Shown one piece after another: positions 1 to 8,546 of a DNA stretch of 8,546 nt. The stretch comes from a virus. Taxonomy: Duplodnaviria > Heunggongvirae > Uroviricota > Caudoviricetes. The notes under the pieces were generated by a model. The model ran no database searches. It saw nothing but the letters and a program-made list of their open reading frames with translations, and was not told the origin of the DNA. The stretch lies in the IMG/VR virus record IMGVR_UViG_2531839200_000005. One strand, given 5' to 3'. The position numbers and the translations under genes are program-made. Position 1 is the first letter of the stretch; each line of letters begins with the position of its first letter.

Positions 1-283
1 CAACAGGGAGTACTGGCGACTCGTATGACAACGCGATGGCTGAGAGCATCAATGGTCTTTACAAAGCGGAGGTAATACACCGTAAGAGCTGGAAAAACCG
101 GACAGAAGTGGAACTGGCCACACTAACGTGGGTGGACTGGTATAACAATCGACGATTGCTGGAAAGGCTGGGCCATATTCCTCCGGCAGAAGCAGAAAAA
201 GCTTATTATGCTTCCATCGGAAATAATGATCTGGCAGCCTGAGTTCACAGATAAAATACTCTCCAGGAAACCCGGGGCGGTTC
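1..283 (+). mobile_element. Right (3') end of an IS3-family insertion sequence (IS629/IS3411-like), left part outside the window
   Basis: The sequence ends ...TCTCCAGGAAACCCGGGGCGGTTCA at 283, with the family-typical terminal 5'-CA-3'. Its reverse complement, TGAACCGCCCCGGG..., resembles the terminal inverted repeat I recall for IS629-group elements. The encoded protein fragment is a typical IS3-family transposase C-terminus. Lambda-like right-arm sequence resumes at about 284. The exact IS identity is from memory and not verified. Confidence 0.75.
3..242 (+). CDS. IS3-family DDE transposase (OrfB), C-terminal fragment; 5' end truncated by window edge
   Basis: Reading frame 3 from position 3 gives TGSTGDSYDNAMAESINGLYKAEVIHRKSWKNRTEVELATLTWVDWYNNRRLLERLGHIPPAEAEKAYY..., stop TGA at 240-242. 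The DSYDNA motif carries the catalytic glutamate of retroviral-integrase-like DDE transposases. The ORF track lists only the part from the internal Met at 36. Confidence 0.8.
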   Translation, partial: TGSTGDSYDNAMAESINGLYKAEVIHRKSWKNRTEVELATLTWVDWYNNRRLLERLGHIPPAEAEKAYYASIGNNDLAA

Positions 284-440
284 AATTCAGTGTCGCTGAT
301 TTGTATTGTCTGAAGTTGTTTTTACGTTAAGTTGATGCAGATCAATTAATACGATACCTGCGTCATAATTAATTATTTGACGTGGTTTGATGGCGTAGAT
401 GCACGTTGTGACATGTAGATGATAATTATTATCATTTTGC

Positions 441-447
441 GGGTCCT
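441..447 (+). other. cosQ-like element (approximate position)
   Basis: GGGTCCT lies about 24-30 bp upstream of the cohesive-end sequence, matching my recollection of where cosQ sits near the lambda right end. Exact boundaries are uncertain. Confidence 0.4.
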
Positions 448-470
448 TTCCGGCGATCCGACAGGTTACG

Positions 471-482
471 GGGCGGCGACCT
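471..482 (+). other. cosN: 12-nt cohesive-end sequence GGGCGGCGACCT (terminase nicking site)
   Basis: Exact match to the lambda 12-nt cohesive end. It is preceded by ...GATCCGACAGGTTACG (lambda right-end sequence) and followed by CTCGCGGGTTTTCGCTATTTATGAAAATTTTCCGG (lambda left-end sequence). Confidence 0.9.
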
Positions 483-522
483 CGCGGGTTTTCGCTATTT
501 ATGAAAATTTTCCGGTTTAAGG

Positions 523-638
523 CGTTTCCGTTCTTCTTCGCCGTAACCTAATGTTTTTATTTAAAACACCCCCTGAAAAGAAAGGAAACGACAGGTGCTG
601 AAAACGGGCTTTTTGGCCTCTGTCGTTTCCTTTCTCTG
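523..638 (+). other. cosB: terminase small-subunit binding region (R3, AT-rich IHF-type segment, R2, R1)
   Basis: R3-like CGTTTCCGTTCTTCTTCG is at 523-540 (+). An AT-rich segment at 541-579 is in the position of the lambda IHF site I1. R2-like GAAAGGAAACGACAG is at 580-594 (inverted orientation). R1-like TGTCGTTTCCTTTCTCTG is at 621-638 (+). All lie between cosN and the nu1 start, as in lambda. Confidence 0.75.
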
Positions 639-659
639 TTTTTGTCCGTGGAATGAACA

Positions 660-1179
660 ATGGAAGTCAACAAAAAGCAGCTGGCTGACATTTTCGGTGC
701 GAGTATCCGTACCATTCAGAACTGGCAGGAACAGGGAATGCCCGTTCTGCGAGGCGGTGGCAAGGGTAATGAGGTGCTTTATGACTCTGCCGCCGTCATA
801 AAATGGTATGCCGAAAGGGATGCTGAAATTGAGAACGAAAAGCTGCGCCGGGAAGTTGAAGAACTGCGGCAGGCCAGCGAGACAGATCTCCAGCCAGGGA
901 CTATTGAGTACGAACGCCATCGACTTACGCGTGCGCAGGCCGACGCACAGGAGCTGAAAAATGCCAGAGACTCCGCTGAAGTGGTGGAAACCGCATTCTG
1001 TACTTTCGTGCTGTCGCGGATCGCAGGTGAAATTGCCAGTATTCTCGACGGGATCCCCCTGTCGGTGCAGCGGCGTTTTCCGGAACTGGAAAACCGACAT
1101 GTTGATTTCCTGAAACGGGATATCATCAAAGCCATGAACAAAGCAGCCGCGCTGGATGAACTGATACCGGGGTTGCTGA

Positions 1180-1205
<26 letters not shown>
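660..1205 (+). CDS. nu1: Terminase small subunit (gpNu1)
   Basis: 181-aa ORF, MEVNKKQLADIFGASIRTIQNWQEQGMPVLRGGGKGNEVLYD..., which I recognise as lambda Nu1. The N-terminal winged helix-turn-helix region is the cosB-binding domain. Same length and position relative to cos as in lambda. Confidence 0.95.
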
Positions 1206-4886
<3,681 letters not shown>

Positions 4887-4906
<20 letters not shown>

Positions 4907-6206
4907 TCTCCCGCATATTGCCAGCATGGCTTTTAATGAGCCGCTGATGCTTGAACCCGCCTATGCGCGGGTTTTCTTTTGTGCGCTTGCAGGCCAGCTT
5001 GGGATCAGCCGCCTGACGGATGCAGTATCCGGCGACAGCCTGACTGCCGGAGAGGCACCCGCGGCGCTGGCGTTATCCGGTGATGATGACGGACCACGAC
5101 AGGCCCGGAGTTATCAGGTCATGAACGGCATCGCCGTGCTGCCGGTGTCCGGTACGCTGGTCAGCCGGACGCGGGCGCTGCAGCCGTATTCGGGGATGAC
5201 CGGTTACAACGGCATTATCGCCCGTCTGCAACAGGCTGCCAGCGACCCGATGGTGGACGGCATTCTGCTCGATATGGACACACCGGGCGGAATGGTGGCG
5301 GGAGCATTTGACTGTGCTGACATCATCGCCCGTGTGCGTGACATAAAACCGGTATGGGCGCTGGCCAACGACATGAACTGCAGTGCAGGTCAGCTGCTTG
5401 CCAGCGCCGCCTCCCGGCGTCTGGTCACGCAGACCGCCCGGACAGGCTCCATCGGCGTCATGATGGCTCACAGTAATTACGGTGCTGCCCTGGAGAAACA
5501 GGGCGTGGAAATCACGCTGATTTACAGCGGCAGCCATAAGGTGGATGGCAACCCCTACAGCCATCTACCGGGTGATGTCCGGGAAACACTGCAGTCCCGG
5601 ATGGATGCAACCCGCCGGATGTTTGCGCAGAAGGTGTCGGCATATACCGGCCTGTCCGTGCAGGCTGTGCTGGATACCGAGGCTGCAGTGTACAGCGGTC
5701 AGGAGGCCATTGATGCCGGACTGGCTGATGAACTTGTCAACAGCACCGATGCGATCACCGTTATGCGTGATGCACTGGATGCACGTAAATCCCGTCTCTC
5801 AGGAGGGCGAATGACCAAAGAGACTCAATCAACAACTGTTTCAGCCACTGCTTCGCAGGCTGACGTTACTGGCGTGGTGCCAGCGATGGAGGGCGAAAAC
5901 GCCAGCGCGGCGCAGCCGGACGTGAACGCGCAGATCACCGCTGCGGTTGCGGCAGAAAACAGCCGCATTATGGGGATCCTCAACTGTGAGGAGGCTCACG
6001 GACGCGAAGAACAGGCCCGCGTGCTGGCAGAAACCCCCGGTATGACCGTGGAAACGGCCCGCCGCATTCTGGCCGCAGCACCACAGAGTGCACAGGCGCG
6101 CAGTGATACTGCGCTGGATCGTCTGATGCAGGGGGCACCGGCACCGCTGGCTGCAGGTAACCCGGCATCTGATGCCGTTAACGATTTGCTGAACACACCA
6201 GTGTAA
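4887..6206 (+). CDS. C: Head maturation protease / scaffold fusion gpC (S49 ClpP/SppA-like serine protease N-terminal domain)
   Basis: GTG at 4887 lies just downstream of a GAGGAGGAG Shine-Dalgarno run (4875-4883) and gives MTAELRNLPHIASMAFNEPLMLEPAYARVFF..., 439 aa as in lambda C. The ORF-track start at 4752 is an in-frame upstream Met inside B and is probably not used. Overlaps the B 3' end by 20 nt. Confidence 0.9.
5601..6206 (+). CDS. nu3: Scaffolding protein gpNu3, translated from an in-frame internal start within C
   Basis: ATG at 5601 is 714 nt into the C frame, the same offset as lambda nu3 within C. It encodes MDATRRMFAQKVSAYTGLSVQ... (201 aa) and shares the C stop codon. Confidence 0.8.
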   Translation: MDATRRMFAQKVSAYTGLSVQAVLDTEAAVYSGQEAIDAGLADELVNSTDAITVMRDALDARKSRLSGGRMTKETQSTTVSATASQADVTGVVPAMEGENASAAQPDVNAQITAAVAAENSRIMGILNCEEAHGREEQARVLAETPGMTVETARRILAAAPQSAQARSDTALDRLMQGAPAPLAAGNPASDAVNDLLNTPV

Positions 6207-6210
6207 GGGA
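6205..6210 (+). promoter_or_regulatory. Shine-Dalgarno for D
   Basis: AAGGGA sits 5 nt upstream of ATG 6216. Confidence 0.5.
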
Positions 6211-6215
6211 TGTTT

Positions 6216-6548
6216 ATGACGAGCAAAGAAACCTTTACCCATTACCAGCCGCTGGGCAACAGTGACCCGGCTCATACCGCAACCGCGCCCGGCGGATTGA
6301 GTGCGAAAGCGTCTGCAATGACCCCGCTGATGCTGGACACCGCCACCCGTAAGCTGGTTGCGTGGGATGGCACCACCGACGGTGCTGCCGTTGGCATTCT
6401 TGCGGTTGCTGCTGACCAGACCAGCACCACGCTGACGTTCTACAAGTCCGGCACGTTCCGTTATGAGGATGTGCTCTGGCCGGAGGCTGCCAGCGACGAG
6501 ACGAAAAAACGGACCGTGTTTGCCGGAACGGCAATCAGCATCGTTTAA
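6216..6548 (+). CDS. D: Head decoration protein gpD
   Basis: 110-aa ORF from ATG 6216, [27 protein letters not shown]...AISIV. An AAGGGA Shine-Dalgarno at 6205-6210 favours ATG 6216 over the upstream in-frame ATG 6210. Confidence 0.93.
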
Positions 6549-6565
6549 CCTTACCCTTCATCACT

Positions 6566-6590
6566 AAAGGCCGCCTGTGCGGCTTTTTTT
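6566..6590 (+). terminator. Intrinsic-terminator-like hairpin with U-tract in the D-E intergenic region
   Basis: AAAGGCCGC-CTGT-GCGGCTTTTTTT: 5 G:C pairs extendable by A:U pairs, a 4-nt loop, then 7 T (6584-6590) and a second T7 run at 6597-6603 immediately before the E start codon. Confidence 0.5.
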
Positions 6591-6603
6591 ACGGGATTTT
6601 TTT

Positions 6604-7629
6604 ATGTCGATGTACACAACCGCCCAGCTGCTGGCGGCAAATGAGCAGAAATTTAAGTTTGATCCGCTGTTTCTGCGTCTCTTTTTCCGTGAGAGCTATC
6701 CCTTCACCACGGAGAAAGTCTATCTCTCACAAATTCCGGGACTGGTAAACATGGCGCTGTACGTTTCGCCGATTGTTTCCGGTGAGGTTATCCGTTCCCG
6801 TGGCGGCTCCACCTCTGAATTTACGCCGGGATATGTCAAGCCGAAGCATGAGGTGAATCCGCAGATGACCCTGCGTCGCCTGCCGGATGAAGATCCGCAG
6901 AATCTGGCGGACCCGGCTTACCGCCGCCGTCGCATCATCATGCAGAACATGCGTGACGAAGAGCTGGCCATTGCCCAGGTCGAAGAGATGCAGGCAGTTT
7001 CTGCCGTGCTTAAGGGCAAATACACCATGACCGGTGAAGCCTTTGATCCGGTTGAGGTGGATATGGGCCGCAGTGCGGCAAACAACATCACACAGTCCGG
7101 TGGCACGGAGTGGAGCAAGCGTGACAAGTCCACGTATGACCCGACCGACGATATCGAAGCCTACGCGCTGAACGCCAGCGGCGTGGTGAATATCATCGTG
7201 TTTGATCCGAAAGGCTGGGCGCTGTTCCGTTCCTTCAAAGCCGTCAGGGATAAGCTGGATACCCGTCGCGGCTCTCATTCCGAGCTGGAGACAGCGGTAA
7301 AAGACCTGGGCAAAGCGGTGTCTTATAAGGGAATGTATGGCGATGTGGCCATCGTCGTGTATTCCGGACAGTACGTGGAAAACGGCGTCAAAAAGAACTT
7401 CCTGCCGGACAACACGATGGTGCTGGGGAACACTCAGGCACGCGGTCTGCGTACCTATGGCTGTATTCAGGATGCGGACGCACAGCGCGAAGGCATTAAC
7501 GCCTCTGCCCGTTACCCGAAAAACTGGGTGACTACCGGCGATCCGGCGCGAGAGTTCACCATGATTCAGTCAGCACCGCTGATGCTGCTGGCTGACCCTG
7601 ATGAGTTCGTGTCTGTACAACTGGCGTAA
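6604..7629 (+). CDS. E: Major capsid protein gpE (HK97-fold)
   Basis: 341-aa ORF from ATG 6604, MSMYTTAQLLAANEQKFKFDPLFLRLFFRESYPFTTEKVYLSQIPGLVNMALYVSPIVSGE.... The ORF-track start at 6577 lies inside the upstream hairpin and is rejected. Confidence 0.95.
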   Translation: MSMYTTAQLLAANEQKFKFDPLFLRLFFRESYPFTTEKVYLSQIPGLVNMALYVSPIVSGEVIRSRGGSTSEFTPGYVKPKHEVNPQMTLRRLPDEDPQNLADPAYRRRRIIMQNMRDEELAIAQVEEMQAVSAVLKGKYTMTGEAFDPVEVDMGRSAANNITQSGGTEWSKRDKSTYDPTDDIEAYALNASGVVNIIVFDPKGWALFRSFKAVRDKLDTRRGSHSELETAVKDLGKAVSYKGMYGDVAIVVYSGQYVENGVKKNFLPDNTMVLGNTQARGLRTYGCIQDADAQREGINASARYPKNWVTTGDPAREFTMIQSAPLMLLADPDEFVSVQLA

Positions 7630-7631
7630 TC

Positions 7632-7649
7632 ATGGCCCTTCGGGGCCAT
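7632..7649 (+). other. Stem-loop with UUCG tetraloop in the E-FI intergenic region (possible attenuator or mRNA stability element)
   Basis: ATGGCCC-TTCG-GGGCCAT: perfect 7-bp stem, UUCG loop, starting 3 nt after the E stop codon and followed by the U-rich TGTTTCTCTGT. Confidence 0.4.
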
Positions 7650-7670
7650 TGTTTCTCTGTGGATGAGTCC

Positions 7671-8069
7671 ATGACGAAAGATGAACTGATTGCCCGTCTC
7701 CGCTCGCTGGGTGAACAACTGAACCGTGATGTCAGCCTGACGGGGACGAAAGAAGAACTGGCGCTCCGTGTGGCAGAGCTGGAAGAGGAGCTTGATGACA
7801 CGGATGAAACTGCCGGTCAGGACACCCCTCTCAGCCGGGAAAATGTGCTGACCGGACATGAAAATGAGGTGGGATCAGCGCAGCCGGATACCGTGATTCT
7901 GGATACGTCTGAACTGGTCACGGTCGTGGCACTGGTGAAGCTGCATACTGATGCACTTCACGTCACGCGGGATGAACCTGTGGCATTTGTGCTGCCGGGA
8001 ACGGCGTTTCGTGTCTCTGCCGGTGTGGCAGCCGAAATGACAGAGCGCGGCCTGGCCAGAATGCAATAA
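7671..8069 (+). CDS. FI: gpFI (DNA-packaging accessory / head assembly protein)
   Basis: 132-aa ORF from ATG 7671, MTKDELIARLRSLGEQLNRDVSLTGTKEELALRVAELEEELDDTDE.... The ORF-track start at 7632 would begin inside the E-FI hairpin. Size matches lambda FI. Confidence 0.9.
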   Translation: MTKDELIARLRSLGEQLNRDVSLTGTKEELALRVAELEEELDDTDETAGQDTPLSRENVLTGHENEVGSAQPDTVILDTSELVTVVALVKLHTDALHVTRDEPVAFVLPGTAFRVSAGVAAEMTERGLARMQ

Positions 8070-8080
8070 CGGGAGGCGCT

Positions 8081-8434
8081 GTGGCTGATTTCGATAACCT
8101 GTTCGATGCTGCCATTGCCCGCGCCGATGAAACGATACGCGGGTACATGGGAACGTCAGCCACCATGACATCCGGTGAGCAGTCCGGCGCAGTAATACGT
8201 GGTGTTTTTGATGACCCTGAAAATATCAGCTATGCCGGACAGGGCGTGCGCGTTGAAGGCTCCAGCCCGTCCCTGTTTGTCCGGACTGATGATGTGCGGC
8301 AACTGCGGCGTGGAGACACGCTGACCATCGGTGAGGAAAACTTCTGGATAGACCGGATTTCGCCGGATGATGGCGGAAGCTGTCATCTCTGGCTTGGGCG
8401 TGGCGTGCCGCCTGCCGTTAACCGTCGCCGCTGA
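8081..8434 (+). CDS. FII: Head-tail connector protein gpFII
   Basis: 117-aa ORF with GTG start at 8081, preceded by GGGAGG (8071-8076). MADFDNLFDAAIARADETIRGYMGTSATMTSGEQ... I recognise as lambda FII. Confidence 0.92.
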   Translation: MADFDNLFDAAIARADETIRGYMGTSATMTSGEQSGAVIRGVFDDPENISYAGQGVRVEGSSPSLFVRTDDVRQLRRGDTLTIGEENFWIDRISPDDGGSCHLWLGRGVPPAVNRRR

Positions 8435-8445
8435 AAGGGGGATGT

Positions 8446-8546
8446 ATGGCCATACAGGGTCTTGAGCAGGCCGTTGAAAACCTCAGCCGTATCAGCAAAA
8501 CGGCGGTGCCCGGTGCGTCAGCAATGGCCATTAACCGCGTTGCTTC
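8446..8546 (+). CDS. Z: Tail assembly protein gpZ, N-terminal fragment (3' end beyond window)
   Basis: ATG at 8446, preceded by AAAGGGGGA (8435-8443), gives MAIQGLEQAVENLSRISKTAVPGASAMAINRVA, matching the lambda Z N-terminus. It is absent from the ORF track because no stop falls within the window. Confidence 0.85.
   Translation, partial: MAIQGLEQAVENLSRISKTAVPGASAMAINRVA

Follow-up and report, generated by a model that had tools for sequence, protein, structure and literature searches.

The DNA analysed here raises the question of what an insertion sequence (IS) means when it lies directly beside the packaging site of a prophage: does it mark a prophage in decay, or a simple and recent transposition? 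The window, which denotes the whole stretch of 8,546 bp that was analysed, opens inside an IS and continues into the cos region and head genes of a lambda-like prophage. The initial annotation took the foreign DNA between the lysis region and cos as an argument for either a degrading or cryptic prophage or a recent IS hop. The reading favoured here, to which I assign a probability of roughly 0.93, is a simple transposase-mediated insertion of IS629 at the triplet ATT (lambda 48317-48319) of a lambda-like E. coli prophage.

The way in which the window begins is of little help with this question. It is the entire draft contig AOEN01000043.1 (GCA_000335095.2), identical base for base, and it opens inside IS629 because short-read assemblies break at multicopy repeats. 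Both ends of the window are probably assembly breaks and not biological boundaries, the one at the 3' end presumably falling in shared prophage sequence within gene Z, and a contig that opens inside an IS is poor evidence for prophage decay. The analysis covered the identity and exact end of the element, the state of cos, and relatives that carry either the complete element or the empty site.

The right end of IS629 and the adjoining cos region

Window 1-284 (+ strand) corresponds to the 3' terminal 284 bp of IS629, a member of the IS3 family (IS positions 1027-1310 of 1310). These 284 bp are 100% identical to the copy in phage BP-4795, where they match OrfB of IS629, to a copy in O157:H7 PV15-279, and to the copy in the L029 contig described below. 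The annotated IS629 beside prophage VT1-Sakai showed 97.2% identity over the same stretch, and the element was named from the annotated copies of BP-4795 and VT1-Sakai. Among 5,426 complete E. coli genomes, 4,136 contained the sequence, at a total of 25,207 places (E=4e-146) on chromosomes as well as plasmids, labelled 'IS3 family transposase' and with a median of 3 and up to 49 places per genome. The closely related names IS1203 and IS3411 are in use for isoforms of IS629, in line with a RefSeq label.

The coding part of the fragment comprises the C-terminal 79 codons of OrfB, part of the OrfAB transposase, at 3-242 (+), with the stop codon TGA at 240-242. As in the IS3 family generally, the GAG codon at 42-44 (within DNAMAES...K) probably encodes the last of the three acidic DDE residues. 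Two short ORFs overlap the end of the IS or the junction, one at 208-330 (+, 40 aa) and one at 49-285 (-, 78 aa); being out of frame with and antisense to the transposase gene, respectively, they are probably spurious. An Rfam search at the gathering threshold returned no family in the window itself.

The right terminal inverted repeat of IS629 occupies the 25 bp at 260-284 (+), ends in ...GGTTCA, and lines up with a feature that AP000400 (VT1-Sakai) labels 'inverted repeat from right end of IS629'. Both this repeat and the mobile_element feature of VT1-Sakai stop exactly where the match to window 284 stops, so that IS629 ends at 284 and not at 283, where the end of the terminal repeat had been placed. 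The start of the lambda-like match in relatives leads to the same position: lambda-like DNA begins at window 285 (= lambda 48317), and the match starts at exactly 285 in every uninterrupted relative, among them O26/O103-type prophages, the isolated phages PhiR, Kati, and 2H10, and lambda. The lambda-like right arm resumes directly after the IS, as had been proposed.

The segment at 285-470 (+) corresponds to lambda 48317-48502 with 94.6% identity (the 186 bp before cosN contain 10 substitutions relative to lambda), and it is 99-100% identical to prophage relatives; it forms an intergenic spacer between a leftward DUF3950 (YlcI/YnfO-type) gene and cos. A scan of this spacer for promoters revealed nothing promoter-like on the minus strand that could serve the DUF3950 gene, and the two consensus matches on the plus strand, against 1.2 expected by chance, are at chance level. 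From 471 to 8546, the window matches lambda 1-8077 with 97.7% identity and a single gap, and the gene order nu1-A-W-B-C-D-E-Fi-FII-Z is common to both. The 12-nt cohesive end in cosN, GGGCGGCGACCT, lies at 471-482 (+) and is identical to lambda 1-12. The distance between the IS629 end and this cohesive end is therefore 186 bp; a spacer of about 187 bp had been announced, and it is present at this marginally smaller size.

The cos site measures ~200 bp and is built from cosQ (7 bp and highly conserved), cosN, and cosB (120 bp, comprising the elements R3-I1-R2-R1), and cosQ is needed for the termination of packaging (Feiss et al., PMC4669245). In the window, cosQ (GGGTCCT, 441-447, +) is identical to lambda 48473-48479 and, as the leftmost cos subsite, lies 156 bp away from IS629. 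Following the published architecture (PMC4669245), cosB with R3-I1-R2-R1 was placed at 521-640 (+), and its R cores are identical to those of lambda (R3 CGTTTCC at 523, R2 GGAAACG at 584 in inverted orientation, and R1 CGTTTCC at 624). In an ungapped comparison, window 455-540, which spans the cohesive end and the R3 core, is wholly identical to lambda; cos departs from that of lambda by five substitutions within the I1 spacer and by one base pair that is missing between R2 and R1. The lambda-type layout is complete, with the cohesive end, cosQ upstream of it, cosB downstream, and then intact nu1 and A, and the comparison of the subsites with lambda upheld the view that cosQ, cosN, and cosB had been spared by the insertion. 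Since cos is only ~200 bp long and cosQ is 156 bp away from the IS, the packaging signals probably still work.

The first gene after cos, nu1 (terminase small subunit, 660-1205, +), is an intact 181-aa ORF (Pfam Phage_Nu1) in the same orientation as the transposase gene of the IS. Open reading frames of lambda-like length were present for all nine head genes that the window contains in full (nu1, A, W, B, C, D, E, Fi, and FII), and nothing within the window suggests decay of the prophage.

The complete element and its target duplication in a related prophage

According to a cluster-member look-up, both the gpD allele of the window and its cut OrfB product are rare, and they led to AOEN01000043.1, which was reached via the cut OrfB product, and to L029. 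The latter, which was reached via the rare gpD allele, is a 5.29-Mb contig (SWKA01000005.1) of a separate assembly, GCA_013141925.1. L029 aligns to window 1-8546 as one piece and is 100% identical over 1-7807, junction included, and over 8049-8546. Its complete IS spans 1760-3069, i.e. 1310 bp, and contains an orfA with an HTH_Tnp_1 domain and an orfB with HTH_21 and rve domains (rve E=1.6e-26). An ALIL frameshift pseudoknot was detected in it with 121.5 bits against a threshold of 50 (Rfam), and RefSeq marks a 'programmed frameshift' on an identical copy. The left terminal repeat, TGAACCGCCCCGGAAATCCTGGAGA, pairs with the right repeat at 260-284, 22 of 25 positions being complementary by eye, and the terminal repeats of IS629 end in 5'-TG...CA-3' (the right one read in the window, the left one in L029).

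The L029 IS thus shares with IS629 the 25-bp terminal repeats, the orfA/orfB arrangement, the ALIL frameshift pseudoknot, and a 3-bp duplication. Over its full length it is 100% identical to the O157:H7 PV15-279 copy and 98.9% identical to the IS629 of BP-4795, and only 95.0% identical (65 differences) to the copy next to VT1-Sakai. IS629 'types' differ from each other by 55-60 bp (Rump et al., 2011, PMC3271280), and as the 65-difference gap matches this distance, the L029 IS belongs to another subtype than the Sakai-flank copy. The 95-96% identity to other IS629 copies fits the distance between types as well. Judged by these features, window 1-284 is the right end of a full-length, probably active IS629 of 1310 bp, an element whose DDE transposase OrfAB is produced through -1 ribosomal frameshifting.

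The L029 site reads ...CCCCGTATT, then IS629, then ATTCAGTG..., with ATT on both sides; together with their flanks, the ends of the IS read ...GAGGTTGCCCCGTATT, TGAACCGCC...GGCGGTTCA, ATTCAGTGTCGC... The left junction of a simple insertion would join ...CCCCGTATT to TGAACCGCCCCGG... The flank of the DUF3950 gene to the left of IS629 ends in ...GTTGACATGAGGTTGCCCCGTATT, and a stretch of the gene reads ...GTTGACATGAGGTTGCC. The right copy of ATT is at window 285-287 (= lambda 48317-48319), and the left copy falls outside the window. Empty sites, ...GTATTCAGTG..., carry a single ATT and were read in eight relatives (L030-L033, L001, L007, L013, and lambda): the context is ...CCCCGTATTCAGTG... in L030-L033, with lambda identical there, and ...CCCTGTATTCAGTG... 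in L001, L007, and L013, with one ATT in each case.

Compared with the empty site of L031, which is 100% identical to window 285-6848, the left flank of L029 stops at L031 position 216 and the right flank begins at 214, an overlap of 3 bp. The left flank of L029 is 100% identical to L030 and L031 up to and including ATT, and 99.8% identical to L032. The ATT overlap and the collinear flanks show a 3-bp target-site duplication without loss of phage DNA. Duplications of the same kind, GTT, GGGA, TGC, GGT, and ATC (3-4 bp), flanked five other IS629-type copies that were examined, and IS629 has been described to duplicate 3-4 bp of its target (Rump et al., 2011, PMC3271280). Both features that the initial annotation had anticipated, an inverted repeat at the left end and a short target duplication (3-4 bp), were seen in L029. 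Whether Rz/bor-region DNA had been deleted or merely interrupted had been posed as an alternative: deletion is ruled out by flanks that are collinear with the empty sites, and the phage DNA is interrupted, although at a different neighbour, as the PerC/DUF3950 region and not Rz/bor lies immediately to the left.

The left end and the left ATT were read in L029 only, which shares the junction of the window, and the source contig shows the right side. The IS of the source strain might accordingly mark the boundary of an IS-mediated rearrangement (including a later one between IS copies) or deletion, in which case the DNA on its left would not be the DUF3950/PerC/lysis region and the right arm would be truncated and degrading. 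The left flank does lie outside the window, the contig stops inside the IS, and both IS629-type copies without a duplication beside truncated genes (as in L043) and a truncated IS beside a group II intron (in L027) exist near the region. I nevertheless consider such a boundary improbable, because L029, with the identical junction and 100% identity over 1-7807, shows the ATT duplication and a collinear left flank, and because all head genes in the window are intact. A short-read assembly chimera at the IS/phage junction is in practice refuted: the window, a whole contig of 8.5 kb, does have repeats at its boundaries, and a mosaic patch in Fi could stem from collapsed prophage repeats, but the same junction occurs base for base in the independent 5.29-Mb contig, together with the matching left junction and the duplication.

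The idea that the ORF at the start of the window is a fragment of a phage-encoded integrase has a negligible probability: Pfam calls the matching domains 'integrase core domain', and the 79-aa cut product is on record as an exact match named 'integrase core domain-containing protein, partial', but rve, rve_2, and rve_3 denote the retroviral-integrase-type DDE fold and not a tyrosine recombinase (Phage_integrase), and the sequence is multicopy, has inverted repeats at its ends, contains a frameshift pseudoknot, and is flanked by duplicated target sites. The 79-residue fragment matched rve_3 (E=3e-12) and rve_2 (E=1e-7), i.e. a DDE transposase domain, and a search for Phage_integrase in it gave no match at E<=1e-3, with only rve-type domains found. 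The IS3-family transposase gene in which the window had been said to open is thereby confirmed, by its domains as well as by its IS629 matches.

Age and distribution of the insertion

For the simple insertion of IS629, the near-identical prophages with an empty site provide an indication of age. Outside the IS, just two SNPs and a 1-bp indel distinguish L029 from L030 over 15.2 kb, and since prophages as similar as this (three differences) carry the empty site, the insertion is recent. Of the two options that had been offered for the element, the recent hop is favoured by these empty sites, and degradation or a cryptic state has no support within the window, where the nine head genes are intact.

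The gpD allele of the window was found on 27 contigs. Among the 24 gpD-allele contigs that were read (8 distinct places shown), L029 was the only one with an occupied site; the second occupied site is that of the window contig itself, which has the same gpD allele, and the other allele carriers that reach the site are empty. The exact 33-mer of the junction was absent from one-genome-per-species contigs, IMG/VR, and JGI metagenomes. Megablast of window 1-1300 against 5,426 complete genomes of E. coli and against 50,697 phage records returned no single-piece junction, and exact-protein look-ups of gpA (2,619 blocks) and gpFI (27,916 blocks) yielded no block with the IS. Twelve megablast matches with 'full coverage' turned out to be other IS insertions nearby and not this junction. 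The junction is rare and rests on two assemblies. The presence of the IS is polymorphic among near-identical prophages, which is consistent with recent activity, and the insertion is simple, recent, and restricted to one small lineage.

Other E. coli strains (SLK172 and relatives, M15, and UTME-9) carry IS629-type insertions in the same orientation and in the same accessory stretch between the lysis genes and cos. In SLK172 and relatives (L042 1604-2913) and in Z1323CEC0013 (L027 2272-2784), the IS is found at window-equivalent 385-387, where GTT is duplicated, and just 83 bp (window 388-470) separate it from the cohesive end on its right. In M15 (L028 1475-2784), it lies just downstream of ylcI with the duplication GGGA, and in UTME-9 an IS629-type copy lies upstream of PerC. 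These copies differ from that of the window in target position and in subtype (95-96% identity, left repeat CCGGGAATCC), and they consequently represent separate insertion events. Repeated IS629-type insertions fit a dispensable region, and the spacer between DUF3950 and cos tolerates insertion, with at least two independent IS629 events within ~190 bp of cosN that left cosQ untouched. Two of the IS copies met in this comparison are irregular: the copy in L027 is truncated and adjoins a group II intron reverse transcriptase, and an IS629-type copy at L043 475-1784 has no duplication and lies beside a truncated integrase.

IS629 is the most abundant IS of EHEC O157 (PMC9943667), and in four sequenced O157:H7 genomes 62% of its copies were located in prophages or prophage-like elements, with phage-borne sites that vary between strains (Rump et al., 2011, PMC3271280). 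The insertion described here resembles IS629 in the lambdoid prophages of EHEC O157:H7 with respect to prophage location, a duplication of 3-4 bp, and strain-specific presence, and it shares with these insertions the lack of a sequence-specific target (PMC3271280). Unlike those O157:H7 sites, the site at lambda 48317-48319 was occupied in 0 of 5,426 complete genomes and 0 of 50,697 phage records and is private to a small lineage. The insertion of IS629 beside cos is thus correct, ordinary, and already known in kind; it carries little weight beyond annotation, although a strain-specific site of this sort could serve as a typing marker for the small lineage.

Likely effects and neighbouring variation

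A copy-out/paste-in reaction through a circular intermediate is typical of IS3-family elements and is the probable route of this insertion as well. The ATT target, which was duplicated, belongs to the non-coding spacer, and 186 bp separate it from the cohesive-end site on its right. IS629 is co-oriented with nu1 and A, and hence with late transcription. It would lie inside the late transcription unit, where Q-antiterminated RNA polymerase may be expected to read through it into nu1 and A with little polarity, and the genome to be packaged would grow by 1,313 bp.

To the left of the IS, L029 contains Rz1, a PerC-family gene, and a leftward 74-aa DUF3950 (YlcI/YnfO-type) gene. The start codon of the latter is 13 nt away from the duplicated ATT, with the IS upstream of the gene, and the insertion would cut this gene off from the DNA upstream of it, which, together with the added 1,313 bp, would be its main local effect. 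Lambda NC_001416 also has an intact ORF of 64 aa (L003 3110-3304 = lambda complement(48109-48303)), a homologue of the YlcI/YnfO (DUF3950) genes in the prophage relatives. This ORF starts 13 nt from the target triplet and is absent from the annotated features of NC_001416.

A more far-reaching scenario, in which the prophage is inducible and packaging-competent, would have IS629 carried in virions at the extreme right of the chromosome, with 186 bp between it and the cohesive end, and induction would read into the transposase gene, which is co-oriented with the Q-antiterminated late transcript, and boost transposition. I regard this scenario as unlikely, if conceivable, given that cos and the head genes are intact and that IS629-bearing phage genomes (BP-4795) are on record. 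If it were true, the phage would be both vehicle and trigger for the spread of IS629. A separate observation concerns the minor tail gene M of L029, where a 1-bp deletion in a G-run (~16528) relative to L030 breaks a 109-aa ORF; this may be an inactivating frameshift, so that the L029 prophage may be defective, or a homopolymer sequencing error.

Variation between the window and L029/L030 is concentrated in gene Fi, where 240 bp at window 7808-8048 hold every one of the 21 substitutions as well as a 3-bp indel; the remaining 8.3 kb outside this patch are 100% identical. In its 132-aa FI, the window has the allele that is very common in O157-type prophages (27,916 blocks). The patch reflects either gene conversion among lambdoid prophages that share a host or the collapse of a repeat during draft assembly.

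Gene E showed variation of a different kind. In L031 (6777-15477; L031 is the relative identical to window 285-6848) and in L044 (16280-27200), this major capsid gene is split by an island of ~11 kb at window-equivalent 6848. The island encodes an integrase, a primase, and SSB, has AlpA-like genes, and brings its own capsid (E-like) and decoration (D-like) genes. Of the 5,426 complete E. coli genomes, 172 contained its junction; in the window, the corresponding site is empty. The island matches the helper-embedded PICI '11capE' at site E:Phage_cap_E:80 (PMC10111431).
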